A DNA stretch of 64,000 nt from a virus (lineage: Duplodnaviria > Heunggongvirae > Uroviricota > Caudoviricetes). The notes below the pieces were generated by a model. It did not search any database, was not told where the DNA came from, and saw nothing but the letters and a program-made list of their open reading frames with translations. The stretch covers positions 1 through 64,000 of the IMG/VR virus record IMGVR_UViG_3300020050_013619; one strand, written 5' to 3'. The translations under genes were made by a program, and so were the position numbers. Every line of letters begins with the position of its first letter. Within the stretch, counting starts at the first letter, position 1. This document shows positions 5,563 through 63,646 of the stretch, piece after piece.

Positions 5563-5601
5563 ATAAAAAGCCGTTATACCCCCTCAGTATAACGGCTTTG
5601 T
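5563..5601. terminator. bidirectional intrinsic terminator between convergent genes
   Basis: Stem GCCGTTATA/TATAACGGC with the CCCCCTCAG motif in the loop, followed by a T-run. Confidence 0.6.
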
Positions 5602-5615
5602 TTTTTACTCAAATA

Positions 5616-6512
5616 TCAAAACGGTAAATCCTTAGAACGAAAACCAGCCGCATTCTTATGTCCACCGCCTTTGCGACCCTCAAACTCAAATTGTGATGCC
5701 AGCTCTGCACAGTCAACAGGATTTTCCTTGTTTGCACCTTGACGCAGCGACACTTTCCAAGATTTTGTCTCATAAACATAATAAGCGAATGCCAATAAAT
5801 CGGGTTGCTCCTGGGCGTATCGTGGTGTGTTGTACCACATAGCACCATCGCCACCACCGATTGAAAGGAGTGTTTTATGACCCCGCCATTCAATGAGATT
5901 GGCAAACTTAGATTCCTTGTTGACCTGACTTTGTAAGTAGCCCAAAATGCAAACACCTTCGTGATATAGGCGCAAAACAGGAGCTTTTTCAATTGCCGCA
6001 AAATCACTTACTTTAGAGACCGCACCACGTACGGCATATTCAAAAGGCAATATTTCTGTTTCCCAATCATTTGAGCCAAAGCCATCAAACACATCATACC
6101 GACCAACCAATTCGACGAACTTAGGCTCTGTTTGATTGGGGTAGAAATACCGCCAAGTTAAACGGCACGCTGCCATTGTGCCGTACTTGATGATGCACAA
6201 GTCTTTGAGTCTGTCAAATGCTTCGTCATACGTTTTTTTGTGGTGGTCAATCCATGTCAACTGATTGAATATCGCTAATTCAACCATATCCTCCAACGGT
6301 AACGAAATATCCAGCATATAGACCAACGACCTGCGTGGAATGCTTTTGATTTCATCCAATGACCGACCGTAATCATAGCCGATTAGAACAACTTCAAAAT
6401 CAATTTCTAAAAGGGCTTTTTGGGCGATGTAGGCAGACAACAAACCGTCGTTGTCCGCATCGTGGTGAATGATATATACCTTACTCATTGTCAATAAAGT
6501 TTTTAAGTTCAA
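5616..6512 (-). CDS. DHH/DHHA1-family phosphoesterase (NrnA/RecJ-like nanoRNase or phosphodiesterase)
   Basis: Motif I IIHHDADNDG, DHH motif WIDHH, DHHA1 motif GGGHKNAAGF. Confidence 0.8.
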   Translation of the reverse strand: MNLKTLLTMSKVYIIHHDADNDGLLSAYIAQKALLEIDFEVVLIGYDYGRSLDEIKSIPRRSLVYMLDISLPLEDMVELAIFNQLTWIDHHKKTYDEAFDRLKDLCIIKYGTMAACRLTWRYFYPNQTEPKFVELVGRYDVFDGFGSNDWETEILPFEYAVRGAVSKVSDFAAIEKAPVLRLYHEGVCILGYLQSQVNKESKFANLIEWRGHKTLLSIGGGDGAMWYNTPRYAQEQPDLLAFAYYVYETKSWKVSLRQGANKENPVDCAELASQFEFEGRKGGGHKNAAGFRSKDLPF

Positions 6513-6711
6513 TAATCATTTTTACAAACTCATCTTTCATCAGTTTGATGTCGGCTGGCAGTATCCGAGCCGTACCAAACTGATTCATTTTTTGCGTTAA
6601 CTTGATGCGCGCCTCTTTGCCCAATGTGGGATACATGCGCTTTGCCAATTCCGAGCGTTTGATAAAATCGGGAATTTGCGGTTTTTCGTTCTTAGGTTTG
6701 TCCATATCCAT
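6481..6711 (-). CDS. hypothetical small protein (76 aa)
   Basis: ORF overlapping the DHH gene start by 32 nt, in the same operon. Confidence 0.35.
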   Translation of the reverse strand: MDMDKPKNEKPQIPDFIKRSELAKRMYPTLGKEARIKLTQKMNQFGTARILPADIKLMKDEFVKMIIELKNFIDNE

Positions 6712-6776
6712 AATTGAGAATATTATTTTAGCCAGCTTTTTACGGCTGGCTTTGTTGGTGAAAAAATGTATTTTAA

Positions 6777-7676
6777 TTATTGTGCGAAAATAGTCTTAGC
6801 GATTGGCTTACAAAGTTGTTTTGTTGCATACAAAGCGTTATCCGTAATTTTTCTTTGCCATGCCGAGTAAGTAGGCGACCAACGATAACCGTGCGATTTG
6901 AGTTCTTTACGTGTTTTGTCATCGGGTTTTTCATCAAATAAAATCTGAACTCTATCGGCTTCATAATTCACTTGTACCTCACCACCATCAAACTGCCAAC
7001 CTTTGACTTCACCTGATTCTTTTTGTTTTTCACGCAAAGCAATTTTGTTTTCCAATTCCTCTACACGACTTTCAAGCCTTTTGATATTGGCATTGTTATT
7101 CGTTAATTCATAGGACTGAAAACCTTTTGATTGATAGCTGTATGGCGGGTTAAGTAAACTATGTATGGTTTGTGGTTTAATACCCATTTCTGTCAATAAT
7201 TCAACCGCATTACTTTTGCGACAAATAGCGTTGATTTCTTTCATGTACTTCTGCTTGTATGAACGTCTCGCCAAATCAGTACGTGCCTTTTCCAATTCAC
7301 CATCGGGCGTTGTGGGTCTTGCCTCTCTGTTGACACGTTTGAAGAACTTATTACGCCAATCATTAAAGATATTATAGGCGTTTTCCTCCGACCGATTGGC
7401 TTTTTCCGCTTTACGTGTTGGGAACTTAGATGGTCCTGTTATCATAGACGAAAAGCAATTGCACTTACGGTGCATCCAAGCAACAAAAAGGTTTTCAAAC
7501 TTTGTCTCATAGCGAGATATGGTTTCATCATCAGCACCACCGTTACGCAGTTGTTCAATATCAGAGTCAAGCATTTGACTGTATTCGCGGACATACATTT
7601 CACCACGTTGTTCGGGTCTGAAACTTGTCCAGTAGTGCGCTCTTACGCACAATTCTAAGTGTTTTTGTAATTTCAT
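6777..7676 (-). CDS. hypothetical protein (299 aa)
   Basis: Long ORF with a central coiled-coil region; no motif recognised. Confidence 0.5.
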   Translation of the reverse strand: MKLQKHLELCVRAHYWTSFRPEQRGEMYVREYSQMLDSDIEQLRNGGADDETISRYETKFENLFVAWMHRKCNCFSSMITGPSKFPTRKAEKANRSEENAYNIFNDWRNKFFKRVNREARPTTPDGELEKARTDLARRSYKQKYMKEINAICRKSNAVELLTEMGIKPQTIHSLLNPPYSYQSKGFQSYELTNNNANIKRLESRVEELENKIALREKQKESGEVKGWQFDGGEVQVNYEADRVQILFDEKPDDKTRKELKSHGYRWSPTYSAWQRKITDNALYATKQLCKPIAKTIFAQ

Positions 7677-7744
7677 TATTAAGATATTGAAATTAGCTCA
7701 ACCATCTAAAATAGCTAATTGAGCTAAGGATAATTTAAGAATTG

Positions 7745-8602
7745 TTAAAATAAACCAGCAATGATACGATCATCAATAAATGACTTGTCAACTACATCAA
7801 CCTTGCCCAATGCTGTTTTGTAGCAATATTTATTTGCCTCGTCAACAACGGACACTATTGTACAATCACTTTCACCATTGGATTTTAGCAGTCTTTCAAT
7901 ACATAATAAAACCTTGTCGTCATCTGATTTGACCACCGCCTTAACCTTGACATACTGCGCAATCTTATCAAAATAGTAACCCCCAATGCGATTACCACCT
8001 GTATCAAAACACTCGGCATAAAACCGACCTGCCGTAATCGTGCTTTCCTTTGACAGATACGACGTGATGATTTTCTCTTTGCCCAAACGATTGACTAAAA
8101 CATAGCCTGCCGAAAGTGTTTGCCAAAATGCTGCAAACTGCTCGGCTGTTTTGATTTGCGATAAGTCAACAACCGACTCACTCACTTTCTCCGTTTTGTC
8201 GGAAACAGTTGATGGAGTGGTGGGCTTCTGTTTTTGTTTAGGGGCTTGCAAATCAGTAACAACTAACAGGATTGTTTTGAGGTCATCTGCTTTCATCTCA
8301 AAACGACCTTTATCATTTTTGGTGAAAACAGGATTGACCTGTTTAGCGGCTTTCAAAAGTGTTGCTTTGTCGCAACCAACAGGACCAACTGAATCAGCCC
8401 ACAATGAACGGTTCAATGCCGTCAACTCGTTGAAAGTAATTGTTTGCGGATTTTCAGCAACAACTGGCTCAACCGTTTTAGATTCCTCAACCCCCTCAGT
8501 AACGGCTTCTTTCTCAATCCGTTCGCGGTTCATATTGAACAGCCGTTTGGCAATTGCATTGATACCGCATTGCACAATCGGCAGTCTGTTACCCGAAAGC
8601 AA
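7745..8602 (-). CDS. hypothetical protein (285 aa)
   Basis: Long ORF, no motif recognised. Confidence 0.5.
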   Translation of the reverse strand: MLSGNRLPIVQCGINAIAKRLFNMNRERIEKEAVTEGVEESKTVEPVVAENPQTITFNELTALNRSLWADSVGPVGCDKATLLKAAKQVNPVFTKNDKGRFEMKADDLKTILLVVTDLQAPKQKQKPTTPSTVSDKTEKVSESVVDLSQIKTAEQFAAFWQTLSAGYVLVNRLGKEKIITSYLSKESTITAGRFYAECFDTGGNRIGGYYFDKIAQYVKVKAVVKSDDDKVLLCIERLLKSNGESDCTIVSVVDEANKYCYKTALGKVDVVDKSFIDDRIIAGLF

Positions 8603-8614
8603 TTGCGTTACATC

Positions 8615-8761
8615 TTAGCGAACAAAGCGTTTGCCTTCTCCTGCAAGGCGTTGCGATACATAAGCGAGAATCTCGGTTTCGCTTTTTGCGGTTTTGGCAA
8701 ATTTGATTAATGCCGTTGTGGTTTCTTTTACTGAATCCGATACTTGAACTTGTGATTTCAT
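8615..8761 (-). CDS. possible small protein (48 aa), first gene of the minus-strand early operon
   Basis: My own translation gives MKSQVQVSDSVKETTTALIKFAKTAKSETEILAYVSQRLAGEGKRFVR. The ATG sits just downstream of the AACGGAATATC leader motif and promoter; it is below the ORF-track size cutoff. Confidence 0.3.
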   Translation of the reverse strand: MKSQVQVSDSVKETTTALIKFAKTAKSETEILAYVSQRLAGEGKRFVR

Positions 8762-8803
8762 CTCTTAGATATTTTAATTATTAAAAAAATATGATTTAGA
8801 TAT

Positions 8804-8840
8804 TCCGTTTTTTCTTTCACAAAGATATATCTGTTTGTTT
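8804..8840 (-). promoter_or_regulatory. early promoter (minus strand) for the 8761..5616 operon
   Basis: On the minus strand: TATATCTTTGTGAAAG (TAnnTTTG) followed by AAAAACGGAATATC. Confidence 0.45.
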
Positions 8841-8964
8841 AGATTATCAAATATTGAATGATAATTTTTACATAATTTTTAAATATTTTTTCTTGCTCGT
8901 TATTGATGAAATCTTTGATTAAATAAATGAAAGTCCGTTACTTGCCAAAAGACTAAATAGCTTA

Positions 8965-9825
8965 TTGATAATGGAGAAAAAAAACAGGACTGAAAATGCG
9001 ACAAAAAAGGCTTCGCAGACCGCAGAAGCTAAAAAGAGAATAGCTATAACACGGATAAAAGAAATGGCGGTCAATTGCTATACCTTGACAGACGTATGCG
9101 AGAAATCAGGTGTTGAGATGCGAACCTTTGAAAATTGGTGTAAAAAGAACCCTAAACTTAGAGATGAAATAAAAGAGCTACTCAAAAAGAATTTTAAAGT
9201 CCGAAAGCAGGTATTTGAAAACGGTGATAGGGAAATCACTTTTACGTATGCCGACGTGGTAAAAAACAATGCTCGGTACAACGATGAGGAAAAACGTAAA
9301 GTAACAGATATGCTTTGCTACGCTGTCGAAAACGGCATACCAATAGCCCAAATATGTAAGGAAATAGACTTTTCCATGTCTCTGTTTTTTAAGTGGGTCA
9401 ATCCCGAACACGGTAGTCATTACCACTACGCCTCCGAAAAGTACAGCGAAGCCAAAAAAACACGGCGATTGATGATTAATGACATGGACGTGTTTACGGC
9501 ACGTACCAAACTTCAATCACGCCTTGAAAACCGCGAAGTGACCAATACGACATTGCATTACGAAACACGTGGTGCCAATGGCGAGAATGAGATATTAAAA
9601 GGTAAAACCGTCCACAAGCGCACCCTTGAAGCAGACTTACCAGCAATCTCTTTGGTGCTTAACAATCTGGACGGTGACTTCAATAAGAAGATGCTGACGC
9701 AAGAACAAATAGACAGCGAGGAATTTGTCAACATGAACGCCGAACAATTGCGCGAGGAATTGGAAAAAGAACGGGCACGGCGTGTATTGCTGGATTCGGG
9801 AAGTTTCATAAACGAAGAAGAATAA
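8965..9825 (+). CDS. putative terminase small subunit / DNA-binding protein
   Basis: Directly upstream of the terminase large subunit; two HTH-like segments (TLTDVCEKSGVEMRTFENW, IPIAQICKEIDFSMSLFFKW). Confidence 0.4.
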   Translation: MIMEKKNRTENATKKASQTAEAKKRIAITRIKEMAVNCYTLTDVCEKSGVEMRTFENWCKKNPKLRDEIKELLKKNFKVRKQVFENGDREITFTYADVVKNNARYNDEEKRKVTDMLCYAVENGIPIAQICKEIDFSMSLFFKWVNPEHGSHYHYASEKYSEAKKTRRLMINDMDVFTARTKLQSRLENREVTNTTLHYETRGANGENEILKGKTVHKRTLEADLPAISLVLNNLDGDFNKKMLTQEQIDSEEFVNMNAEQLREELEKERARRVLLDSGSFINEEE

Positions 9826-9829
9826 TCAC

Positions 9830-11491
9830 ATGGGCGTACCATTACGCAATATAAAACCCACTGACAGAGAAGCCCGATTGATGTTGCAGCTTCTCAAATT
9901 GGAACGCTATGAAAATTATAGGCGTGACCCGTTGCTGTGGGCAAAAGACGTGCTGGGCGAAAACCCCGAAAACTTTGAGTGGTCACTGCATGGTGGGGCA
10001 TACAAAAACCACGTTTGGGACGGTGACGAAAACCCCCTCAGTACTGCGTGGCGTGCATTGGCTCGAAAACAGTGGGTAGGCGTAGCAGCGGCAACAGGTA
10101 CATCAAAAACCTACTGGTTATCAAGAGTTATGTTGTGGTTTTTGGACTGCTTTGAGGATGCCTTAGTTATTACAACTGCTCCTAAACAGGACCAGTTATC
10201 ATTGAACCTATGGGGCGAGGTTTCCAAGATAGTTGACCAATTTGCTAAAACCCGACCTTATACACGTGTTACATCATTGCGATTACAGCCCGAGGGTTTC
10301 AATAACAACTATAAGTATAAGGACACGCACCATGCAATAGGTTTTGTCGCTGGCGTTGTCGCTGGCGAGGAAGTAGCTACGAAAGCTGCTGGTTTTCACC
10401 GTAAAAATATGCTTATTATTTGCGAGGAAATGCCAGGTATGAGCAGTGCGATTTTTGAAGCCTTTCAAAATACGTCCGTTGGCTCTAATAACTTAATGCT
10501 TGGCGTAGGTAATCCCGACAGCGAGACAGATGAATTGTATAAATTCTGTCAGTTGCCAAATGTACGATCATTACGCATATCTGCTTACGATTACCCCAAT
10601 GTGGTTTTAGGTAAAGAGATTTATCACGGAGCTGTTTCCCAAGCCTCAATTGACAGACGTAAAGCAAAATACCTGTCAGAGTCCCATCCATTATATCTAT
10701 CGCGTGTGCGAGGTATTACGCCGAGTGGCTCGGAGCATAGCCTTATCAAAGGGTCATGGATAGATATGTGCAATAAGCATCACCCCAATTTCAAAGGGTA
10801 TAAAAATTACAATGAAACGGGAGAGCGATTGATGGTGTCTTATAATGCCGTAGGTGTTGACGTAGCAAACTCAGAGGATGGAGACAAAGCTTGTTTAGCA
10901 TGGGGGCAAGGTCAGTTTTTGATAGATGTTCACGAGTTTCAATGTCCTAATGCAATGCACTTGGCATATAATATCATTCAAAGCGATGATATTCTGTTTG
11001 ATAAAAATAGGACAATATACAATACTCGTAAAATCCAAGACCTCAATATCATGCCTCAATGTATTGGCGTTGATACGGTTGGTGTGGGTGTATCAACCCT
11101 AAATACGTTACTTGAGGAAAACTATGAAGCGACTTCGTTAAGCGGTGGACCGTGGACAGAGGACGGTATCATCCCCCACGATGCGCAGGGTAAGCCAATG
11201 TACTCTTTTCAAGGGCTAAGGTCGCAGATGATTTGGGAGTTGGCAGTTGATATACAGAATGGCAATATTGTATTTGATATAGAAGATGCCGAAGTTATGG
11301 CAAGGTTGAAAAAAGAACTTGTTACACCCAAGTTCCTATTGTCTTCAGGTGTTGTGGCGATAGAAAAAAAGGAGCATATCATAAAACGCATTGGCAAGTC
11401 ACCCAATATGCTTGACTCTGTCGCTTATTGGAACTGGGTGCGCAAAGGATACCGTTTGAGCGTCGGCGTTATGCCGATGGTTTACGGCTAA
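9830..11491 (+). CDS. terminase large subunit
   Basis: Walker A-like VGVAAATGTSKT, Walker B-like LIICEEM, 553 aa, located upstream of the morphogenesis block. Confidence 0.75.
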   Translation: MGVPLRNIKPTDREARLMLQLLKLERYENYRRDPLLWAKDVLGENPENFEWSLHGGAYKNHVWDGDENPLSTAWRALARKQWVGVAAATGTSKTYWLSRVMLWFLDCFEDALVITTAPKQDQLSLNLWGEVSKIVDQFAKTRPYTRVTSLRLQPEGFNNNYKYKDTHHAIGFVAGVVAGEEVATKAAGFHRKNMLIICEEMPGMSSAIFEAFQNTSVGSNNLMLGVGNPDSETDELYKFCQLPNVRSLRISAYDYPNVVLGKEIYHGAVSQASIDRRKAKYLSESHPLYLSRVRGITPSGSEHSLIKGSWIDMCNKHHPNFKGYKNYNETGERLMVSYNAVGVDVANSEDGDKACLAWGQGQFLIDVHEFQCPNAMHLAYNIIQSDDILFDKNRTIYNTRKIQDLNIMPQCIGVDTVGVGVSTLNTLLEENYEATSLSGGPWTEDGIIPHDAQGKPMYSFQGLRSQMIWELAVDIQNGNIVFDIEDAEVMARLKKELVTPKFLLSSGVVAIEKKEHIIKRIGKSPNMLDSVAYWNWVRKGYRLSVGVMPMVYG

Positions 11492-11526
11492 AAAGACATT
11501 ATAGCATTTCAATTTGGTGTGAAGGC

Positions 11527-11566
11527 TCGGTCTCGTTTGGGATTGAGCCTTTTTTTACTTTTTCCG
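11527..11566. terminator. bidirectional intrinsic terminator
   Basis: Stem AAGGCTC...GAGCCTT then TTTTTTT, between convergent genes. Confidence 0.55.
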
Positions 11567-11764
11567 TAAATGGGTACCAAGAAGCTGTTGCATAGTTTCT
11601 TGCGTCCAACCTTTTTCTATCCATACCTTATCGGCTAATAAGGCTAATCGTTGTGCCTTAAAAGCGATGATGAGTTTTTTTAAATCCAACATTTCATCAT
11701 CATTCAAATCTTTAGTCATCTCCAAGAGCGACATTTGCGCATCGCTTAAATCAGGTAAATCCAT
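11555..11764 (-). CDS. hypothetical small protein (69 aa)
   Basis: ORF only. Confidence 0.4.
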   Translation of the reverse strand: MDLPDLSDAQMSLLEMTKDLNDDEMLDLKKLIIAFKAQRLALLADKVWIEKGWTQETMQQLLGTHLRKK

Positions 11765-11884
11765 TTGCTGTTTTTATGACAAAGCTAAATGCTTTCGTTT
11801 TACAGAATAAATAAATCTGAAAATAAATAATTATTATTTAAAAAATAATTGAAAAATTATTGTGTATTTCAAAAGTTTGTTTAA

Positions 11885-11896
11885 TTTTGTGGTATT
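11885..11896 (+). promoter_or_regulatory. candidate -7 element for the 11921.. operon
   Basis: TAATTTTG matches the Bacteroidetes -7 consensus TAnnTTTG, ~25 nt upstream of the ATG. Confidence 0.35.
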
Positions 11897-11920
11897 AATT
11901 GACAATCTAAAAAATGAGAG

Positions 11921-12151
11921 ATGGCTTCATATAAAAAAGGCGAAAGGGTAAAAATTACTGCTCCGCTATCTTTAAAATCAATGGATTCTTTTCTCACAAA
12001 AGAAAAGGATGAATTCTACTTGCATATTGGTGAAGTATTCGAGTGTATCGACCACTCGCAACCTGACTTCATGGAATACTTAAATGTTTTTTGTCATAAA
12101 AGGCGAGTTGATTTTGAACTGCCTATGGAATTTGTAAAAAGATTAGAGTAA
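11921..12151 (+). CDS. hypothetical small protein (76 aa)
   Basis: ORF only. Confidence 0.4.
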   Translation: MASYKKGERVKITAPLSLKSMDSFLTKEKDEFYLHIGEVFECIDHSQPDFMEYLNVFCHKRRVDFELPMEFVKRLE

Positions 12152-12166
12152 TTTAAAAAATTCACA

Positions 12167-12526
12167 ATGAAAAAAGACTTCATATTCTCAAACCTCACAG
12201 ATGAAGAAATGGCTCACAGCCTTTCGCCTAGTGAGCACCCAAGATATAGCCAGTTGTCGGATACCCAAAAGCAAATCGTTATTGATGGCTGCAAGTTATT
12301 TGTGCCATTATCCAATACATCTAATGATAAGATGGATGAGGCATTGGAGTCTGTTAATCCACGTGTTTTCCAATCGGACGGCAGATTACTGGTGTGGGAG
12401 CAAGACTTTATAGACATTCCCAATATGGTTATAATTGGTAAACCAGCAAATCGTATGACTGTTATACAAACAAGTATGAAAGCATCAACACAAGTATTTT
12501 TCAATAACTTATTGAATTTTAAATAA
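12167..12526 (+). CDS. hypothetical protein (119 aa)
   Basis: ORF only. Confidence 0.45.
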   Translation: MKKDFIFSNLTDEEMAHSLSPSEHPRYSQLSDTQKQIVIDGCKLFVPLSNTSNDKMDEALESVNPRVFQSDGRLLVWEQDFIDIPNMVIIGKPANRMTVIQTSMKASTQVFFNNLLNFK

Positions 12527-12681
12527 TGAAAGAATATAATTCGATTATAGATATTCACATAGATATTTTAAGTTCAAAAATCAAGGATGGCGATACTGTT
12601 TCAATATACTCTGATATTGATAAAGACGGCAACGCTTTCAAGGGTGACTATAAAGTATCACTAAAAGATGGTAAGGTGTAG
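12526..12681 (+). CDS. possible small protein (51 aa)
   Basis: My own translation gives MKEYNSIIDIHIDILSSKIKDGDTVSIYSDIDKDGNAFKGDYKVSLKDGKV; the ATG overlaps the preceding stop (TAATG). Confidence 0.3.
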   Translation: MKEYNSIIDIHIDILSSKIKDGDTVSIYSDIDKDGNAFKGDYKVSLKDGKV

Positions 12682-12740
12682 CTATGCTTAATTGCTAAAC
12701 CAACACATATTAATATACAAATTGGTTCAATAAAATAAAA

Positions 12741-13040
12741 ATGAGTGTAGTAAAAAAAGGCGGTCAACGTCAAGGTTCTGGGCGCAAGAACAAAGGACTG
12801 AAAAACGAGACATTTTCGCTTAGATTAGACGAGCGAGAATTAATTGGTGATTTTCTTAACCGTAATTTAGCCGTGCGTTATGCCATCCGCAAAACGTTTG
12901 GTCTGTGTCTGCACCCCATTATTTCAATGGATGACAACGGTAAAAAGTGCGAGATTTGTGGACAGGAAAACCCCGATGAATATACGGGTCATTTCTTGAC
13001 GGTGGATGATGTGGATGGATTGAGTAGTTTTGGTGAGTAA
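12741..13040 (+). CDS. hypothetical protein with a CxxC pair (99 aa)
   Basis: ORF; CEICGQE motif. Confidence 0.4.
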   Translation: MSVVKKGGQRQGSGRKNKGLKNETFSLRLDERELIGDFLNRNLAVRYAIRKTFGLCLHPIISMDDNGKKCEICGQENPDEYTGHFLTVDDVDGLSSFGE

Positions 13041-13067
13041 TTTTTTCAACAATAAAAAACTAAGTAC

Positions 13068-13481: not shown

Positions 13482-13539
13482 ACTTACAATTACCTAGCAT
13501 AAATACTAAATCATAATATCAACAATAAAAAACAATATC

Positions 13540-13824
13540 ATGTACGGTTTTCAAGTAAAAATTATTAAGTCAGAATTATTAGATAAATGGGAGCGCAAAC
13601 AGGTTCGATTTCCAAAATCTAAAAAGAAACGTATCAGACAAAAGTGGGCTAAGAAAGGCTATAACTTTAGAGGTGTCTTTGCTAAAAATTTTGATACGGT
13701 TGTCAATAACGATACCAATGTTGTGCTTATGTCAACGGCGGCTTATGATGCGTATATGGCTAAGATAAACTCACAGAGGACGATATGGGTATTTATGCCA
13801 AATGTTGCGAGAGATGCGGTGTAA
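13540..13824 (+). CDS. hypothetical protein (94 aa)
   Basis: ORF only. Confidence 0.4.
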   Translation: MYGFQVKIIKSELLDKWERKQVRFPKSKKKRIRQKWAKKGYNFRGVFAKNFDTVVNNDTNVVLMSTAAYDAYMAKINSQRTIWVFMPNVARDAV

Positions 13825-54227: not shown

Positions 54228-54237
54228 AACTTTTCCC

Positions 54238-55119: not shown

Positions 55120-55156
55120 ATAATATTTTTTTAACAATTCAATCAACGGAGTATTT

Positions 55157-56314: not shown

Positions 56315-56993
56315 TCCATCTACACTTAGCCAATTCTGTGCCTATCAGACTGAAAAGTTTGAGGGCACAGATTGGCAGGTGACAAAAGAAGGCTTGATTG
56401 CTTTCTTAAAAGGTCAAAAACTGTGGTCGCCTGCTTTGACCAAAGGACATATCTTTCACAAACTTTTGGAGTTGGGTACTGAGGGGTATGTGCAAACAGA
56501 TGGCAGTTTGCGTGTGGCTTCAAAATCTAAAAACGAAACAATCTATTTTGACGACTACACACGGCGACTGATTGACCGTTTTCGGGAATTGCATCCCGAA
56601 ATGATTCACGAAGTACCGTGTCAACTCAAAATGTCGGTGTTGGGATATGAAATCATATCTAATATGCGAATGGATGCCATTAATCCATTTCCACTACGGA
56701 TTCACGATTTCAAAACCTCATCAAAGCAATACGGACGTGTTTTTGAGGATGAGTATTATGACTCGATGCAGTGGCGCATGTATTTGCTTGCGTGCGATGA
56801 TGTCGATAATTTTCAGTACGACATCTTTCATTTTCAAGATAACGTACCTGGCGCAACACGTTCAATCGAGTATTACAATTTTCAGTTTTGGCGCGAATCG
56901 GACATGGAAAGCCTTGTCGGTGAGTACATGATGGGGTTGATTCAATTTTGCGAAAGGAATGGATTAATTGATTTTTTAACAGTTAAAAGCTAA
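56292..56993 (+). CDS. PD-(D/E)xK nuclease (RecB/Cas4/lambda-Exo-like)
   Basis: MRMDAINPFPLRIHDFKTSSK resembles the ID...D-x-K(T) motif; overlaps the ATPase gene end. Confidence 0.45.
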   Translation: MRKLLKISPSTLSQFCAYQTEKFEGTDWQVTKEGLIAFLKGQKLWSPALTKGHIFHKLLELGTEGYVQTDGSLRVASKSKNETIYFDDYTRRLIDRFRELHPEMIHEVPCQLKMSVLGYEIISNMRMDAINPFPLRIHDFKTSSKQYGRVFEDEYYDSMQWRMYLLACDDVDNFQYDIFHFQDNVPGATRSIEYYNFQFWRESDMESLVGEYMMGLIQFCERNGLIDFLTVKS

Positions 56994-56997
56994 TAAA

Positions 56998-57249
56998 ATG
57001 GATGAATTTGAATACTTTGGTTTAGAAGCAGCAGCCATGCAAGCAGAAGCCGAGGCATACGCTGAGGCAGAATATGCACAACAACAAGCTGAGGCAGAAT
57101 ACAATTATGAACAAGAGCAACGAGAATTCGAAATTACTCAAGCTAATTTAATGCTTGATAAAATCAATGATGAAATCGAAAACTTACGAGAAAGAATTTT
57201 AGAATTACAGGAAAAAAAGCAAGAAATTTTATCATCTATAAAAAGCTAA
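56998..57249 (+). CDS. small acidic coiled-coil protein with an AEAEAY low-complexity run (83 aa)
   Basis: EAAAMQAEAEAYAEAEYAQQQAEAEY. Confidence 0.4.
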   Translation: MDEFEYFGLEAAAMQAEAEAYAEAEYAQQQAEAEYNYEQEQREFEITQANLMLDKINDEIENLRERILELQEKKQEILSSIKS

Positions 57250-57256
57250 AATAACA

Positions 57257-57670
57257 ATGTCATCGTATCAAGCGCAAGGCACACTTATTAAAACTTTCCC
57301 AACGGAGCAAGTCTCCGACAAATTTCAAAAACGGTCGTTGTGGCTGCGTACTGAGGGGCAGTATGCACAGACGATTGAATTCCAATTGACCCAAACACGG
57401 TGCGATTTACTTGACCAATATGCCGAGGGGATGGAAGTTATCGTACACTTTGATTTGCAAGGTCGTATTTGGAGTGATCCACAGAAAGGCGAACGGGTAT
57501 TCAATACGCTCAATTGCTGGAAACTTGAACGTGTCGGCGCAGCGCATACAGCACAACCAATGCCATCAGCACCGATGCCGCAACCAACGTACCAACAGCC
57601 AACAATGCCCGAGCCGCAAAGCGATTTAGGACTTACAAATACCGACGGAGGTAATGACTTACCGTTTTGA
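57257..57670 (+). CDS. putative single-stranded DNA-binding protein (SSB-like, C-terminal DLPF tail)
   Basis: N-terminal ~100-aa globular part, Pro/Gln-rich linker, terminal GGNDLPF resembling the SSB acidic D-(I/L)-P-F tip. Confidence 0.45.
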   Translation: MSSYQAQGTLIKTFPTEQVSDKFQKRSLWLRTEGQYAQTIEFQLTQTRCDLLDQYAEGMEVIVHFDLQGRIWSDPQKGERVFNTLNCWKLERVGAAHTAQPMPSAPMPQPTYQQPTMPEPQSDLGLTNTDGGNDLPF

Positions 57671-57952
57671 CGTTTTTGTTAAAATTTGACAAAAATATAT
57701 AATCATTATATTTGCACACTTGAAAAAATTATGTATTTTTGCTCACAATTTTAACACAAAATAAAAACATTGATGCTCCGCTTGAAGCTCCGCATTGATA
57801 TGTTCATGGGATTATAATTTGTTGTTGGCGGGCTTTTACGCTTTTATGTAAAAGCCCATCTTTTGAAAAGTAGCCGAACGGCTTTTAAGATAGTTTTTGT
57901 GTTTATTTGTTTTTGATTAGTCGGCGATTGCCTTTGTGTAGTCGCAAACTTT

Positions 57953-58027
57953 AGGAAAGTAGCTTAAAGGTAGAGCATGAGGTAATATATAAACCAAAGA
58001 GCGTTGGTTCGAATCCAGCCTTTCCTA
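57953..58027 (+). tRNA. tRNA-like element with a non-canonical anticodon arm (possible pseudo-tRNA)
   Basis: 7-bp acceptor stem AGGAAAG/CTTTCCT, D-arm GCTT-AAAGGTA-GAGC, T-arm GTTGG-TTCGAAT-CCAGC; 26 nt between the D and T arms do not fold into a canonical anticodon stem. Confidence 0.4.
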
Positions 58028-58189
58028 CATGAGTGTTCGTCCATAGTAAGTTTGTAATAAGTTGTAAGGTAACGGTGGTTATTTGCTGCCGTTACTTTTT
58101 GAAAAGATGTAGATTGTTTTCATTTGGTTTTTTGGGGTTATACGAGCCGTTTTTTCGGAATTGTTAAAGCGGTTCGTTTTTTTAAAAAT

Positions 58190-58263
58190 GGCGGTGTGGA
58201 GTAATGGTAGCTTGCCGAGGCTCATAATCTCGGAGTGTGTAGGTTCGATGCCTGCTGCCGCCA
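58190..58263 (+). tRNA. tRNA-Met/Ile2-type (anticodon CAT)
   Basis: Acceptor GGCGGTG/TGCCGCC, anticodon arm CGAGG-CTCATAA-TCTCG, T-arm GTAGG-TTCGATG-CCTGC; strong similarity to bacterial tRNA-Met. Confidence 0.7.
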
Positions 58264-58386
58264 CAAGACAACTTGATGAAAGGGGCGTACGGTTTTTTGA
58301 ATGTTGGAATGGTTTGAATTCGCTGTTTCAATTTCTTAACGAACGTGGTTAGGATAAAAAAGACTAAACGCCCCGCTTTTTAAAAT

Positions 58387-58468
58387 TGCATAGATGCAGA
58401 TATTGGTTAGCCGCGCAGAGTACATTTCTCTGTCCGAGAGGTTGTAGGTTTGATTCCTGCCTATGCAA
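58387..58468 (+). tRNA. tRNA (isotype uncertain; loop TACATTT, long variable region)
   Basis: Acceptor TGCATAG/CTATGCA, T-arm GTAGG-TTTGATT-CCTGC, anticodon stem CAGAG/CTCTG; the D-stem has an A-C mismatch and the variable region is ~11 nt. Confidence 0.45.
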
Positions 58469-58686
58469 CAACGCATAACAACAAAGGGGCTGCACGTCAG
58501 AAGTGACTGCGACAAATTGAATTGAGCGAATAGGGTTGATTGCCGCATTTAAAAGCGGATATAGTACCATCGTTGGTCTTTGGCTTTTTCTGTTTATGCC
58601 ATTGAAGCACACCAAAACAGAGGATTCAAGGCGTTTAAGGCAGCCACATAATTTTTACTATTCACCAACTATAAATTAATTGAGAG

Positions 58687-59457
58687 ATGCAACAAAAAGA
58701 CATTATCGCCTTTGACTTAGAAACAACAGGCACAGAGATTTCCAAAAGTTATATCATCCAAATAGCTTTAAAAAAGTTGAGACCAACCGAATGCGGTTTT
58801 GACATTATTTCGCAGTGGCAAACGTACATTGAACCACCTATTGATATTCCACCAATCATCACTGAAATCACAGGCATCAGCAATGAGACCGTCAAAGGCG
58901 CACCGACGTTTGCCAGCATTGCGCAAGCTTTCGTCAATAAACTGAGGGGTTGCGATCTGATGACGTACAACGCAATGTCGTTGGACCTTCCGCTTTTAGC
59001 TGAAGAGTGTGACCGTGCAGGTGTGCAGTTTTTGAAACTCAACGAATTCAGATTGGTTGATCCGTATCAAATCTTCGTAAAGAATGAACCAAGGACTTTG
59101 GCAGGTGCGGTTAAATTTTATTGCCACGATACGTTGAGCGATGCGCACGATGCCATGAACGACGTGAATGCAATGATAAAAGTATTCAGCGAACAGCGTA
59201 GTCTTTACGGACTATCTGACGATGTGGCGTATTGGGCGGCAGAATCTAAGCCAGCAACCGATAAGGATTATGCGGATTTTTCGCGTAACCTGTATTGGGA
59301 AAATGACGAGCTGTATTACGGCTTTGGTAAGAATAAGGGGTCTAAAGTGGATGACAATTTGGGCTATGCCCAATGGGTATTGAACAATGAGTTTTCCGCT
59401 TCAACAAAAACCGTGCTTCGCGCCTGGATGAAACGTAAGACACCCGAACTTTTGTAG
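58687..59457 (+). CDS. DnaQ-like 3'-5' exonuclease (DEDDh family)
   Basis: Exo I AFDLETTG, Exo II YNAMSLDLPLL, Exo III HDAMNDVNAM. Confidence 0.7.
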   Translation: MQQKDIIAFDLETTGTEISKSYIIQIALKKLRPTECGFDIISQWQTYIEPPIDIPPIITEITGISNETVKGAPTFASIAQAFVNKLRGCDLMTYNAMSLDLPLLAEECDRAGVQFLKLNEFRLVDPYQIFVKNEPRTLAGAVKFYCHDTLSDAHDAMNDVNAMIKVFSEQRSLYGLSDDVAYWAAESKPATDKDYADFSRNLYWENDELYYGFGKNKGSKVDDNLGYAQWVLNNEFSASTKTVLRAWMKRKTPELL

Positions 59458-60401: not shown

Positions 60402-61232
60402 ATGGAAAAGAGGAAGAACGGCACGCTGTTAAAGTATCCCATTACGGACGAATTCCTTGAATTCATGCGTCAGAATTACTTAATCAAAACCAACAAGCAG
60501 TTATTGGAAATGATAAGTCAAAAGCCTGAATGGTCATGGTGTAATTTTGGCGCATTGACAGCGATTAAGCACCGTTACAGATTTATCAAGCAGGAGCAGG
60601 TGAATTACACGCCCGAAGAAATACAGTTTGTCAAGGACAACTATTTGACAATGGGCGATGTAGAAATGGCGCAAATTTTAGGACGCAAGTTCAAAAGCCT
60701 GCACAAATTACGGCGTGTCACTCTGAACTTGCACAGAGATAAAGAAAGTTTAGCAGTGCTTATGAAGCAAGTTGCCCAAAAAGGACACGAAGGCAGAGCG
60801 AGAAAGATGTCAGAAGGAACATTTTACAACCCACGTTACAGGCTTTTAGGCGAAATTTATAGAAATAAGTGCAGCCGTAATTATTGGCTCATAAAGCCCA
60901 GCAGCGATAAGCTGTCAAGACCGATTTATCTACATCGCTTCCTTTGGGAGCGTGAATTCGGTCCTGTTCCGAAAGGTTACGTGATTCGTTTTAAAAACGG
61001 CATCATCCCCGATGACCCCCTCAGTATCACAACCGATATTTTAGAGTGCGTTACAAATGGCGAACACGCTCAAAAAGTCACTCAATTGATGAGTGATAGA
61101 TACTTGGCTGGTCGCTTTCACTACAAAGTCAGAGGTATTGATTTGGCAGCATTGAAAGCATCGGGCTTACTGGATGCCAAACGCCAGCAAATAGAAATAA
61201 GTCGAAAAATTCATTCATTCAATAACAAATAA
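60402..61232 (+). CDS. HNH-like (possibly degenerate) endonuclease-domain protein (start adjusted to the ATG after the leader)
   Basis: IYLHRFLWEREFGPVPKGYVIRFKNG resembles the HNH_3 HR..we...G..p.g core, but the second His is not evident. Confidence 0.4.
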   Translation: MEKRKNGTLLKYPITDEFLEFMRQNYLIKTNKQLLEMISQKPEWSWCNFGALTAIKHRYRFIKQEQVNYTPEEIQFVKDNYLTMGDVEMAQILGRKFKSLHKLRRVTLNLHRDKESLAVLMKQVAQKGHEGRARKMSEGTFYNPRYRLLGEIYRNKCSRNYWLIKPSSDKLSRPIYLHRFLWEREFGPVPKGYVIRFKNGIIPDDPLSITTDILECVTNGEHAQKVTQLMSDRYLAGRFHYKVRGIDLAALKASGLLDAKRQQIEISRKIHSFNNK

Positions 61233-61747: not shown

Positions 61748-61806
61748 CTTTTTTCCCCCCCTCAGTATTTTTTTTTCAATATCAACGGAGTATCAATATC
61801 TAACAA

Positions 61807-62859
61807 ATGTCAAAATTAAAAAAAGAAGTAGGGGTATTACACCCCGAACAAAAAGAACTTATAAGTCTCTTTGAACAAGCTGCTTATCGGCATTCCTATT
61901 GGGATACGTTCAATACGCTTCTCGACTACGGTATCAGTCAATACATCTTTACAGGCTTTACAAAATCCGATGATTTTCAATTCGACAGCAATTGGAATGA
62001 TAAGGAAATAGGGCTATTTCCTAAAATGCTGGATGAAGTCATCCGCTTAAACCGTGAACGGTGTCGTCTGTGGACAGGTCAAAGCGGTTGGTATGATGCC
62101 TTTGGGTGTTTATTTGAATCACTCGTTGGTAATTTTGGCAAATCCGCCATGGGTCAATTCTTCACACCTGAAGTTATGTGTGATTTAATGGCTCAAATAG
62201 TCATTGGTAGCAGTGATGGCGAGAACAGTATTGGTGAATTGGGCGACATCTTAACAGCTGTTGACGGTAATATCGGACGGCAAAAAACACAGTACAAACC
62301 CGAGACAATAGCCGAACCTGCCTGTGGTTCTGGTCGCTTAATACTTGCTGCCAACAATATCAACCCTGCGTTGTACATCGTCGCCAACGACCTTGATAAG
62401 GTGTGCGCCAAAATGTGCGCGCTCAATATGTGCCTAAACGGTGCTATTGGTGAGGTGAGTTGCAACGATGGTCTTTTTGCGACAGAAAACAATTTTAGAT
62501 TCGCTTACCGTGTTGTGCCACTTACTTCAATCATCACAGACAGTTTTTCTTCACTGCATTTTCTGAAAATGGTCATGCCAAGTGTGGTCAAGCAATACTG
62601 CTTAATACCTATGCAATTTAAGGATTGCCGCTACAACGATGAAAAAGTCTATGCCGAACAAAACAGGAAACATAAGGAGCAGCAAGAAAGTTTGGCGGCA
62701 ATGCGAGAGCAACACGACGCACATAGAAAAGCCATTCATCCAGATACTTTTCAAGGTGTTTTGTTTGAAGCGGAAAAAGTCGCCAAGGCAGCAAAACCCA
62801 AAGCGGCAAATAAGCAAGTTCAAAAAATATCTTTTGAACCATTACCAACACTGTTTTAA
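61807..62859 (+). CDS. N6-adenine DNA methyltransferase-like protein (HsdM/gamma-class N-terminal half, lacking a canonical NPPF/DPPY motif)
   Basis: FFTPEV motif, SAM motif I EPACGSG, CAKMCALNMCLNG (a.mN..l.G) as in HsdM-type MTases; no (N/D/S)PP(Y/F) found downstream. Confidence 0.55.
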   Translation: MSKLKKEVGVLHPEQKELISLFEQAAYRHSYWDTFNTLLDYGISQYIFTGFTKSDDFQFDSNWNDKEIGLFPKMLDEVIRLNRERCRLWTGQSGWYDAFGCLFESLVGNFGKSAMGQFFTPEVMCDLMAQIVIGSSDGENSIGELGDILTAVDGNIGRQKTQYKPETIAEPACGSGRLILAANNINPALYIVANDLDKVCAKMCALNMCLNGAIGEVSCNDGLFATENNFRFAYRVVPLTSIITDSFSSLHFLKMVMPSVVKQYCLIPMQFKDCRYNDEKVYAEQNRKHKEQQESLAAMREQHDAHRKAIHPDTFQGVLFEAEKVAKAAKPKAANKQVQKISFEPLPTLF

Positions 62860-62869
62860 CAGGCTTATA

Positions 62870-63112
62870 ATGACAAACAATAATCTCGTTATTTATCCTT
62901 TTGCGCCACGTGAAACGATTTTTTATTTTGAAGTCAAGTTACCGTATCAGAAGGGTGTGAATCAGTATTACAGAAAGATGGGTATTGTAGAAATTAAAAT
63001 CAATCCACGATATGGCGATAATGAGAAAACGGCATGGAATAAAATAAAAATGCTTTATCCACAGAGTAACGCTATTCATAAGTTTGTGAAAATGAAAGAA
63101 AGCGATACGTAA
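62870..63112 (+). CDS. hypothetical small protein (80 aa; start adjusted to ATG at 62870)
   Basis: The upstream in-frame portion of the track ORF overlaps the MTase-like gene; an ATG sits 10 nt after its stop. Confidence 0.35.
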   Translation: MTNNNLVIYPFAPRETIFYFEVKLPYQKGVNQYYRKMGIVEIKINPRYGDNEKTAWNKIKMLYPQSNAIHKFVKMKESDT

Positions 63113-63124
63113 AAAAATATAAAT

Positions 63125-63646
63125 ATGAAACTTGATGATTATTTAAGTATCGAAAATATTGCTAAAATCAATACAATAGAGCAATCATTTTTTAGCCAAA
63201 ATACAGGCGAATCTGCCAATAATTGCAACTGTAATGAGTGTCAAAATATGTGTCGTCGGTGCGCCTGTTTGGGTACACCTATTGATATTTTAAAACTGTG
63301 TGAAGCTGGTTATGCTGACAGATTATCTATGACTAAGTGGATGGTTGGTTATAACTGGGGCGCAGTTGTCAACGGTGCGCCAGTTGGACCAATAGACATG
63401 ATGCAAGCAACCATTAGACCCGATGGTTCATGTAATTTCTTTGACAAAGCAACAGGCAAATGTGAACTACATGATTTAGGCTTAAAGCCTACTGAGGGGG
63501 TGTGGTCTTCGTGTAAAAAAGATGTAGGCAACGGGAAGCCTACATTGCCATTGACATTGGCGGTTGCATTAACATGGCAGAGTAGTCACAACTTACCCGT
63601 GTGGTTAAAGATAATGCGATACACTAAAAGTTATGACAAAAAATAA
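63125..63646 (+). CDS. Cys-rich hypothetical protein (173 aa)
   Basis: NCNCNECQNMCRRCAC plus further Cys residues. Confidence 0.4.
   Translation: MKLDDYLSIENIAKINTIEQSFFSQNTGESANNCNCNECQNMCRRCACLGTPIDILKLCEAGYADRLSMTKWMVGYNWGAVVNGAPVGPIDMMQATIRPDGSCNFFDKATGKCELHDLGLKPTEGVWSSCKKDVGNGKPTLPLTLAVALTWQSSHNLPVWLKIMRYTKSYDKK

Follow-up and report, generated by a model that had tools for sequence, protein, structure and literature searches.

A DNA-uptake-sequence-like word in a myovirus genome as a probable signature of its likely Saprospiraceae hosts

The 10-mer CCCCTCAGTA occurs 26 times as an exact copy in the 64 kb window, the whole stretch of phage DNA analysed here, where ~0.1 copies are expected. 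The same word is abundant in chromosomes of a Saprospiraceae clade, which is likely to provide the hosts of this phage, and the phage copies also follow the extended rule of the host copies. The word, MCCCCTCAGTA with its 5' base included, is probably a signature, resembling a DNA uptake sequence, that marks whole genomes of the host lineage and builds up in co-evolving phages, rather than a phage-encoded element.

The preliminary description had reported a very large enrichment of the 9-mer CCCTCAGTA, and the counts bear this out: 26 exact copies were found against 0.10 expected, and the maximum in 100 dinucleotide-preserving shuffles of the window was 1. An extra C precedes the 9-mer on its 5' side in 26 of 26 copies; therefore, the unit is the 10-mer CCCCTCAGTA. 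With up to one mismatch allowed, 36 matches are obtained versus 1.03 expected. The ten one-mismatch copies (at 3930, 4227, 15345, 20769, 22445, 27509, 35528, 44579, 46591 and 58940, spanning 3930..58949) represent ~10 times expectation, and strain L231 has an exact copy in place of the one at 4227. A or C precedes 24 of the 26 exact copies (position −1), and the flanks of these copies show no further conservation beyond −1. The density of 0.41 per kb in the window is matched by the 75.9 kb JGI version of the genome (~32 copies, 0.42 per kb). The earlier inventory required revision in several respects. Exact copies at 1075, 8492 and 32416 had been missed, the first of them in the initial 5 kb that was described as empty; 22448 and 58951, listed as core copies, are one-mismatch copies (22445, CCCCTCAGTG; 58940, CCCCTCAGTT); the near-copies at 45728 and 47909 carry two mismatches each; coordinates were up to 13 bases off; and the orientation, thought to be balanced at 14/13, was counted as 17 plus and 9 minus.

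Relative to genes, ~14 copies lie in the sense and 9 in the antisense direction, and 3 are intergenic or located where a gene ends. Sense copies read as PLS at 29100..29109 (+; ORF 29043-29552), 39340..39349 (+; ORF 39304-39690), 40599..40608 (+; baseplate J gene 39693-41366), 42394..42403 (−; ORF 42059-42475(−)), 49851..49860 (+; GH46-like gene 49380-50147) and 61017..61026 (+; HNH gene 60354-61232), as well as at 10034..10043 (+) in the large terminase gene 9830-11491, in which CCC CTC AGT encodes P-L-S of DPLSTAW. The PSV frame is used at 1075..1084 (+; Band_7-like ORF 644-1408), 24020..24029 (+; ORF 23007-24185) and 48933..48942 (+; ORF 47527-49266), and PQY at 51252..51261 (+; ORF 50873-51610). 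We also note that the segment holding ORF 644-1408 is inverted relative to other strains. Two further sense copies lie at 32416..32425 (+; ORF 32387-32746) and 32756..32765 (+; ORF 32746-33651). Antisense copies, with TEG as the encoded tripeptide, are located at 8492..8501 (+; ORF 7745-8602(−)), 15559..15568 (−; portal gene 14180-16573), 37516..37525 (+; ORF 37237-37614(−)) and 41000..41009 (−; baseplate J gene 39693-41366), and other antisense copies at 20939..20948 (−; ORF 20715-21368), 54483..54492 (−; ORF 54238-54912), 56477..56486 (−; ORF 56292-56993), 57349..57358 (−; DUF3127 gene 57257-57670) and 63490..63499 (−; ORF 63125-63646). ORF 34478-34957 terminates at the TGA within the copy at 34952..34961 (−). 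Four reading frames are thus used, and therefore the constraint on CCCCTCAGTA acts on DNA and not on a peptide, as had been proposed.

The remaining copies lie between genes or where a gene ends, and the two assigned to terminator hairpins in the preliminary description are indeed found there. The copy at 5580..5589 (+) lies within the loop of a hairpin resembling a bidirectional terminator (stem 5569-5597, outer stem 5559-5605; dG −18.4, z −5.6) between the convergent genes 4960-5550(+) and 5616-6512(−); in strains L002, L004 and L232 the loop is flipped and the motif retained. The end of ORF 52382-52693 carries the copy at 52683..52692 (+), which forms hairpin 52680-52704 (dG −13.1) by pairing with ACTGAGAGGG, an imperfect inverted version of the word. 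A third copy, 61758..61767 (+), is intergenic (61748-61806) with a T-run on one side and a C-run on the other, and no hairpin was found at this site.

The terminase site permits a comparison between lineages. The TerL codons CCC CTC AGT are identical in the window phage and its relatives L234 and L237, in which synonymous sites are saturated, while elsewhere in TerL 29-38% of codons are identical at conserved amino acids having four or more codons. This pattern indicates long-term maintenance of the site at the DNA level. The copy encodes the conserved P-L of the family-wide DPL motif and therefore arose by substitution, not by insertion. This bears on the notion that the copies are relics of a miniature mobile element, or of a terminator module, dispersed by transposition, for which the copies forming intergenic hairpins could be cited. 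Conservation is restricted to 11 bases with unrelated flanks, and in the host ~70% of single copies are found in-frame within genes, and we regard such an origin as scarcely credible.

The host distribution was obtained by scanning the inverted-pair pattern CCCCTCAGTA-N0-30-TACTGAGGGG over 185,579 species genomes, which yielded at least 120 loci. Among the 120 matches listed, 107 come from Saprospiraceae/Bacteroidota MAGs and one Flavobacterium MAG contig that appears misbinned; the 13 listed loci from other taxa contain no extra CCCCTCAGTA copies. The Saprospiraceae carriers comprise at least 20 species, known only as MAGs. Single copies, with pairs excluded, reach 0.59 per kb in the listed host loci (~650 times composition expectation) and 0.92 per kb with pairs counted, that is, 0.6-0.9 per kb overall or ~650-1000 times expectation, versus 0.41 per kb in the phage; these loci were picked for a hairpin pair, and a residual bias is possible even with pairs excluded. 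The loci are ordinary chromosome encoding DnaJ, Kup, two-component systems and an aminotransferase, some of them on contigs of 65-236 kb. Host copies are 130 sense, 136 antisense and 113 intergenic, and every stop-free frame is used. As in the phage, the word is used in hairpins, and the host hairpin pairs are bordered by A-rich and T-rich runs. Positions are conserved as well: at orthologous loci of different host species 116 of 134 copies are exactly conserved, compared with 22.7 expected from local identity. Inside genes, host copies show T at +10 (0.68), AT tracts at +10..12, +19..22, −7..−5 and −19..−16, and a GC block at +14..17; the AT tracts are helically phased, as in the Hin-USS of Pasteurellaceae. 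The phage copies share this extended consensus, with A or C at −1 in 35 of 37 copies and the GC block at +14..17 (z = −4.0); the +10..12 AT tract is weak beside the myovirus copies (W = 0.59).

These observations weigh on the roles first suggested for the word, which were a target of phage-encoded modification, a Chi-like hotspot, a nicking or packaging site, and an uptake-signal-like element; only the last fits. Sites for the phage's own modification, T5/tf-like nicking, packaging or repressor "stoperator" binding would be in keeping with the high density in the phage and, for modification, with its gene content (C5 and N6 methyltransferases, a dCTP deaminase and a PAPS-reductase-like PP-loop protein). 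A modification target, packaging or nick site would be phage-specific, and the host is at least as dense, the finding named in advance as counting against such a role; therefore, these roles are unsupported. The stoperator reading is likewise unsupported, since chromosomal genes of the host contain the motif at an equal or higher frequency. To judge from their gene content and sizes, the host MAG contigs are unlikely to be phage DNA; an unrelated Mu-like phage is at least as motif-rich as the window, and most relatives of the window phage are without the motif. A phage-specific site of any kind is thus very improbable. The truly phage-specific motif of this genome is AACGGAATAT, which is gene-oriented, precedes start codons and is 30-fold less frequent in host DNA, whereas CCCCTCAGTA occurs in both orientations regardless of transcription.

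Across phages, CCCCTCAGTA content tracks the host independently of phage lineage. L238 (Terminase_6C, Mu Gp36), a Mu-like phage that is probably temperate, holds 22 copies in 21.6 kb (1.0 per kb), and its relatives at 63-65% TerL identity hold none in 21.6 kb each; no DNA or protein similarity was found between L238 and the window. Among relatives of the window phage, 4 copies were counted in 7.1 kb of L234 (TerL 78%) and 2 in 3 kb of L237 (TerL 64%), those at 53% TerL identity have ~0.1 per kb, and in ~70 more distant relatives the word is absent.

A word that, in the manner of Chi, protects host DNA from a nuclease or defence system, with phages selected for mimicry, would be under direct selection in a lytic phage, which agrees with conservation of the TerL site at the level of DNA. 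The spacing along the phage, slightly more even than random (CV 0.69, equalled in 3% of 20,000 random placements), is also compatible with such a self-marker. Known Chi sites are 5-8 nt long, have one copy in roughly every 4-5 kb and show a strong bias towards the orientation of replication. The present motif, with 10-11 contiguous nucleotides at 0.6-0.9 per kb, is unlike them; no significant local strand polarity was detected in 70 host loci (chi2 86, 70 df), nor any pattern of orientation along the phage genome, and a Chi-like hotspot was rejected as a poor fit. AT-tract flanks and terminator pairs would also be left without explanation, and a self-marker appears improbable.

Other causes of hyper-abundant words exist, as exemplified by HIP1 (GCGATCGC) of cyanobacteria, which was long without explanation. 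HIP1 resembles the present word in the extreme, clade-wide intragenic over-representation of a short word at evolutionarily conserved positions. A similar methylation- or repair-linked host process, such as a methyltransferase acting together with biased short-patch repair, could keep CCCCTCAGTA abundant, or the word could be a methylated "self" tag, with the phage biased likewise or mimicking it. Were such a process to act on all replicating DNA of the cell, the half-host density of a phage that does not integrate would be accounted for, and the two phage methyltransferases are consistent with the process. HIP1 is a palindrome and known methylase target; in contrast, CCCCTCAGTA is asymmetric with 10-11 contiguous specified bases, and the methyltransferase sites known to us are palindromic or have at most seven specified bases. 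Helically phased AT tracts are also foreign to methylase sites. We therefore consider this explanation unlikely, albeit the most serious of the alternatives. The enrichment of ~650-1000 times and the ratio of exact to one-mismatch host copies (593:89, 6.7:1) are as sharp as those of HIP1, with 5648 copies observed versus 5 expected and 1830 one-mismatch copies (PMC1939737). HIP1 has been argued to enhance transformation (bioRxiv 10.64898/2026.06.24.733823), a possible link that the two words would share, and the HIP1-like explanation may therefore merge into that of an uptake sequence.

The uptake-sequence-like reading draws on close parallels with the Pasteurellaceae USS (Hin-USS AAGTGCGGT, Apl-USS ACAAGCGGT). 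In both cases the core is short and asymmetric, reaches ~0.5-1 per kb and occurs in either orientation and in several frames within genes; inverted pairs act as terminators, positions are stable across species, helically phased AT tracts follow the core, and the word accumulates in phages of the host, as in HP1 with 17 USS cores in 32.4 kb (0.53 per kb). The present word differs in its unrelated sequence, in its Bacteroidota rather than gammaproteobacterial host, and in that its recognition during DNA uptake is what we infer here. Like the DUS of Neisseriaceae (AT-GCCGTCTGAA and dialects; receptor ComP), it has a 10-mer core with one or two semi-conserved 5' bases (M at −1 here), several hundred-fold enrichment, frequent inverted pairs at gene ends and occurrence in many species of one family. 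Sequence and phylum are different, and DUS are without the phased AT tracts. DUS are reported to be depleted in neisserial prophages and islands, in contrast to the motif-rich phages described here. The excess of exact over one-mismatch copies is also greater than for Apl-USS, with 438:947 (PMC1939737). USS accumulate in temperate Pasteurellaceae phages, up to ~750 per Mb (Szafranski et al. 2019, ISME J, PMC6776037), and, as in those phages, the genomes studied here reflect the putative uptake word of their host clade, with a density that tracks host association and lifestyle and not phage phylogeny.

Natural competence with a preference for self-DNA is on record in Bacteroidota for Riemerella columbina (PMC7965970). 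Motif searches for competence and pilus genes in 647 kb of host loci returned ABC transporters only. In the proposed mechanism, the competence machinery of the host would preferentially take up word-bearing DNA and homologous recombination would then fix it, a "molecular drive" that would spread the word through all DNA recombining in that gene pool. Such uptake and recombination are the most likely cause of the upkeep of the word at about one copy per kb. Phages co-evolving with Saprospiraceae would acquire the word by the same process, the Mu-like phage attaining host density and the 76 kb myovirus lineage about half of it. Likely lytic Pasteurellaceae phages are USS-poor (PMC6776037), and therefore the textbook route does not fully explain the half-host density of the myovirus, a difference from the Pasteurellaceae case; its 76 kb genome revealed no recognisable lysogeny module, whether integrase, recombinase or repressor. 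Its replicating genomes may have recombined with motif-bearing phage or prophage DNA imported by competent cells, or an undetected lysogenic or carrier state may have provided the route. If the word is an uptake-sequence-like element, both the motif and the phylum, Bacteroidota, would be new for such elements; to our knowledge, DNA uptake sequences have so far been defined only in two proteobacterial families.

The 64 kb window contains 26 copies of the 9-mer CCCTCAGTA, compared with a mean of 0.10 and a maximum of 1 in 100 dinucleotide-preserving shuffles. A further 5' C is present in all 26 copies, and the conserved unit is therefore the 10-mer CCCCTCAGTA (reverse complement TACTGAGGGG), for which 36 matches with at most one mismatch are found against 1.03 expected. 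Position -1 is A or C (M) in 24 of the 26 aligned copies, and the remaining flanks show no strong conservation. The list of copies in the preliminary description is essentially correct, although those at 1075, 8492 and 32416 were overlooked; since the copy at 1075 is exact, the statement that the first 5 kb contains none was mistaken. The copies placed at 22448 and 58951 carry one mismatch, and the near-copies at 45728 and 47909 carry two. The balanced orientation reported there (14 forward, 13 reverse) is replaced by 17 exact copies on the plus and 9 on the minus strand.

Relative to the genes, ~14 copies are sense and 9 antisense, and the orientation is independent of gene direction. Four reading frames are used (sense PLS, PSV and PQY; antisense TEG), one copy provides a stop codon, and three are intergenic. 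This shows that the constraint acts on DNA, and the use of four frames supports the DNA-level constraint proposed earlier. The copy at 5580 is located within the loop of a strong hairpin (dG -18.4 kcal/mol, z -5.6) with convergent genes on either side, and the copy at 52683 pairs with its own imperfect inverted copy in a hairpin at 52680-52704. The longest motif-free stretch of the window spans 42404-48932. We also note that three neighbouring paralogous small genes (43579-44797, minus strand; 117, 145 and 144 aa), all assigned to phrog_10066, lie in this stretch.

Pfam and PHROG assignments identify structural and packaging genes (small-terminase-like protein, portal, prohead protease, capsid, tail sheath, baseplate J), replication and recombination genes (primase, O-like initiator, AAA_24 ATPase, RNase_T-family exonuclease, DUF3127 protein), and genes of nucleotide and DNA metabolism (dCTP deaminase, PAPS-reductase-like protein, C5 and N6 methyltransferases, HNH protein). 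No integrase, recombinase or repressor was recognised among the ORFs of at least 250 aa and the small leftward genes scanned. A megablast search with 20 kb of the window found no counterpart among 50,697 phage records; in its DNA sequence the phage is new. The large terminase is recorded on the 75,918 bp JGI contig 3300020036 Ga0206648_1000027, as well as on a number of Logan and NCBI contigs with 99-99.9% identity to the window. Across the whole JGI contig the motif is present in ~32 copies, or 0.42 per kb. A single-protein scan of IMG/VR found nothing, and a search by alignment of the large terminase (TerL) returned 80 loci.

Several differences are observed among the versions and strains of this phage. 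Positions 1-1401 of the window (junction near 1395-1401) are inverted with respect to the JGI and Logan versions L001, L002 and L232, and the breakpoint cuts a Band_7 gene, which encodes 254 aa here versus 328 aa elsewhere; the inversion reflects either a rearrangement among strains in a variable region or a chimeric assembly. The motif hairpin at 5569-5597 is flipped in L002, L004 and L232, with the loop CTGAGGGGG versus CCCCCTCAG in the window. This is a hairpin inversion, in which the motif is retained in the opposite orientation. Within the C5 methyltransferase gene, the copy at 4227-4236 is the one-mismatch form TACTGATGGG in the window and the exact TACTGAGGGG in strain L231, a segregating gain or loss of one motif copy. 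The polymorphism at motif sites thus comprises one exact/one-mismatch difference (4227) plus one hairpin flip, which is not enough to tell gains from losses. L231 (JGI 3300020049 Ga0206652_1000465) additionally carries at 11766-13106 an IS605 OrfB/TnpB gene (446 aa, Cas12f1-like_TNB) that is missing at the corresponding place of the 75.9 kb contig. Inteins or homing-endonuclease domains are present in L006 (14313-15080), where the Hom_end_hint gene is interrupted by the end of the JGI contig, and in the TerL relatives P0022, P0038, P0088, P0096 and P0112; several TerL relatives are 700-915 aa long and contain PF05203/PF05204.

One genome from each of 185,579 bacterial and archaeal species was scanned for the inverted pair CCCCTCAGTA-N(0-30)-TACTGAGGGG, and at least 120 loci were found. 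Among those listed, 107 come from MAGs labelled as Saprospiraceae or Bacteroidota (one of them a Flavobacterium MAG), representing at least 20 species-level genomes, and 13 come from scattered taxa, each without copies beyond the pair. An 8 kb Saprospiraceae locus typically contains 3-9 extra copies. Over the 647 kb of the 107 listed loci, the density of single copies is 0.59 per kb with the selecting pairs left out and rises to 0.92 per kb with them, where composition predicts ~0.0009 per kb. The genes of these loci are ordinary chromosomal ones (DnaJ, Kup, histidine kinases, response regulators, an aminotransferase), and contigs of 65-236 kb carry some of the loci. Exact copies are more frequent than the 30 one-mismatch variants combined (593 versus 89). 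The locus labelled Flavobacterium sp. GFS_2297 (JAYTGH010000187.1) has 7 copies in 8 kb and in this resembles the Saprospiraceae loci; misbinning of the contig is the probable reason, the alternative being that the motif extends beyond Saprospiraceae. A search of the 647 kb of scattered host loci for competence-gene motifs gave two matches, both ABC transporters.

A Chi-like marker of self DNA was rejected on the length, density and orientation of the motif. Chi, KOPS and SRS are 5-8 nt long, co-oriented with replication, and present about once per 4-12 kb. In contrast, the motif is 10-11 nt long and occurs at 0.6-0.9 per kb. Host copies are 130 sense, 136 antisense and 113 intergenic, with all stop-free frames in use, and their local orientation within the 8 kb pieces is not significantly over-dispersed (chi2 86 on 70 df), which counts against polar motifs of the Chi or KOPS type. 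More than 100 exact inverted pairs in the Saprospiraceae MAGs are bordered by A-rich sequence on the 5' side and T-rich sequence on the 3' side, and by sequence they have the look of bidirectional intrinsic terminators.

The positions of the copies are stable. When orthologous loci of different species are compared (70-90% identity), an exact counterpart is present for 116 of 134 copies versus 22.7 expected from local identity, a count that takes in hairpin pairs and therefore carries some ascertainment bias. Alignment of 272 single host copies in long open frames further reveals an extended consensus, with M at -1 (0.97) and T at +10 (0.68), AT-rich tracts at +10..12 and +19..22 (0.68-0.75), a GC-rich block at +14..17 (AT fraction 0.37-0.43 versus a background of 0.62), and lesser AT peaks at -7..-5 and -19..-16. 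The phage copies partly mirror this consensus: of 37 pooled copies from the phage lineage, 35 have A or C at -1; the copies are also GC-rich at +14..17 (z -4.0), and their AT tract at +10..12 is weak. A miniature mobile element is contradicted by flanks that are unconserved and by in-frame copies that encode conserved residues, and this reading was rejected.

The preliminary description had proposed roles specific to the phage, among them a modification target and a nicking or packaging site, and had named an equal frequency in the host genome as the observation that would speak against them. The host density is equal or higher, and orientation is unrelated to gene direction; a methylase target, nick, pac site or stoperator of the phage is contradicted by these counts, and the stoperator, nick-site and methylase-target readings were rejected. 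The enrichment is real and very large, and it is a host signature rather than a phage device.

The window does contain a word of the phage-specific type. The second enriched word, tCAACGGAATAtcaa, has a core, ACGGAATA, present 20 times, and most of these copies lie 4-15 nt upstream of an ATG in the same orientation as the gene (e.g., at 598, 16804, 18986, 22981, 30224, 32790, 47517, 52300, 52714, 54213, 54965, 59495, 63717 and 63743). Likewise AACGGAATAT, the second most frequent word of the window, is found 4-15 nt upstream of start codons and co-oriented with genes. The density of the second word is 0.27 per kb in the phage versus 0.009 per kb in host DNA, i.e., 30 times rarer in the host. 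Unlike CCCCTCAGTA, AACGGAATAT is therefore a phage-specific motif, gene-oriented and rare in the host, and tCAACGGAATAtcaa is probably a promoter or translation-start element of the phage. Relatives have their own versions, TTAAAGTAACTTTAATATG in L012 and GTAAAGATAcggaaaatttt in L035; the frequent 9-mers of these two loci were rejected as dispersed words because they are start-codon-proximal elements, and those of L037, L057 and L060 because they are tandem repeats.

The distribution of CCCCTCAGTA among phages was examined through the TerL relatives and an IMG/VR scan for motif pairs. The relative with 78% TerL identity (L234) has 4 exact copies in 7.1 kb and that with 64% (L237) has 2 in 3 kb, whereas two with 66% (L235 and L236) have none in 3.8 kb; L009 and L010 (53%) have 2 exact copies in 17-19 kb, and ~70 more distant loci have none, except for a single copy in one. 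The copy in the terminase gene encodes P-L-S within a conserved DPLSTAW segment, and the codons CCC CTC AGT are the same in the window, L234 and L237, while only 29-38% of codons are identical in the rest of the gene (conserved amino acids with at least four codons). This indicates that the word has been kept or regenerated at the DNA level over a long divergence. The pair scan gave 20 loci, in 18 of which the pair stands alone. L238, the IMG/VR contig 3300037309_000133 of a Mu-like phage (Terminase_6C, Mu Gp36), has 22 copies in 21.6 kb, or 1.02 per kb, while its relatives with 63-65% terminase identity have zero copies in 21.6 kb each. L238 has no DNA or protein similarity to the window. Blastn found no match between the window and either the host loci or L238, and the phage is therefore unlikely to have received host DNA recently. 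The motif content is set by the host clade, not by the phage lineage, and the motif is almost certainly a clade-wide host signature common to unrelated phages. Locus L016 (like L017, TerL ~49% identical) has a shorter core, CCTCAGTA, 5 times in 21.5 kb versus ~0.45 expected, and L068 has CCAGGATAA 7 times in 21 kb, dispersed and in both orientations; these words may be dialects, or different host-specific words of other host clades.

The properties established for CCCCTCAGTA correspond to those of the uptake sequences of Pasteurellaceae (USS) and Neisseriaceae (DUS). It is a short asymmetric word, hundreds-fold over-represented at about one per kb in the host loci, and it occurs in both orientations, without polarity, in several frames and between genes, in the 8 kb host pieces as in the phage. 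Inverted terminator-like pairs are present in hosts and phage (hairpins 5569-5597 and 52680-52704), the word is shared across the clade at stable positions (at least 20 species-level MAGs; 116 of 134 copies), and phages accumulate it independently of lineage (0.42 per kb in the myovirus, 1.02 in L238, with relatives of both lacking it). An extended consensus (M at -1, T at +10, AT tracts, GC block) accompanies the core, as helically phased AT tracts do in the Haemophilus influenzae USS and a semi-conserved 5' dinucleotide does in DUS. In the Haemophilus USS, as reportedly described by Smith et al. in 1995, AT tracts spaced by roughly a helical turn come after the core, and the host motif has the same arrangement; this is a mechanistic resemblance, with no membership claimed. 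By inspection CCCCTCAGTA is unlike AAGTGCGGT, ACAAGCGGT, and GCCGTCTGAA with its dialects, and its hosts are Saprospiraceae rather than Pasteurellaceae or Neisseriaceae. It therefore lies outside both known families and is at most a new family of the same kind.

To our knowledge, motif-level sequence-specific uptake has been defined only in Pasteurellaceae and Neisseriaceae, and we know of no defined uptake word in Bacteroidota. The only source known to us as established for an asymmetric 10-12-mer that is spread through an entire bacterial family at about one per kb, in both orientations, within genes and as terminator pairs, is biased uptake by competent cells followed by recombination, and CCCCTCAGTA is therefore read as a candidate uptake sequence. 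Competent Saprospiraceae would preferentially take up DNA bearing the word, and recombination would then spread it, in the manner of the USS/DUS molecular drive (Mell and Redfield 2014, cited in PMC6776037). Self-DNA preference is reported in competent Riemerella columbina, a member of Bacteroidota (PMC7965970). The motif did not turn up in a microbial context in our literature search, which likewise gave no paper connecting uptake sequences and Saprospiraceae. On balance, CCCCTCAGTA is slightly more likely than not to function as an uptake sequence. As a rival, a methylation- or repair-linked process like that of the cyanobacterial word HIP1 might keep the word abundant and would easily account for a lytic phage; it fits poorly with an asymmetric contiguous word of 10-11 bp with phased AT tracts, the motif being non-palindromic in contrast to a palindromic methyltransferase site, and HIP1 itself has recently been proposed as a transformation enhancer, a third case of an uptake sequence (bioRxiv 10.64898/2026.06.24.733823).

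The phages of the clade would then mirror the uptake word of their host, as documented for Pasteurellaceae phages. Phage HP1 has 17 USS cores in 32.4 kb, or 0.53 per kb; USS are present in essentially all temperate Pasteurellaceae phages at up to ~750 per Mb, and likely lytic ones are USS-poor (Szafranski et al., PMC6776037). The textbook route, a prophage within a transformable chromosome, is uncertain for the myovirus because lysogeny genes were not found. Both the recognition of the word during uptake and its route into the myovirus are inferred. Apart from the textbook route, replicating phage genomes may recombine with motif-bearing phage DNA imported by competent cells, for which the AAA_24 ATPase, exonuclease and DUF3127 genes could be the phage's own resources; alternatively, the myovirus may have an undetected carrier state, or there may be direct selection on the phage for bearing the host's word. 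The full combination, a true uptake-specificity sequence of the Saprospiraceae clade with a non-integrating, probably lytic 76 kb myovirus lineage under the same drive, we regard as unlikely.

Mirroring of a host uptake sequence by phages is an established phenomenon. New here are the word, the phylum in which it occurs, and the density that it reaches in a phage with no lysogeny module. If CCCCTCAGTA had a function other than uptake, it would still be a new hyper-abundant genomic word needing explanation. It offers a concrete word for uptake assays and a host-assignment marker for uncultured phages of the clade, analogous to USS profiling. As an uptake sequence, a ~1000-fold enriched 11-mer in at least 20 Saprospiraceae species would extend sequence-specific uptake to Bacteroidota and would be the first sharply defined uptake sequence there, making this only the third or fourth lineage with such a sequence. 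Combined with a probably lytic myovirus lineage under the same drive, it would further imply that phage DNA is carried between cells by natural transformation, feeding phage-phage recombination, or that the host's 'self' word benefits the phage, and the half-host density reached without a lysogeny module raises the testable question of whether transformation drives the sequence evolution of lytic phages.
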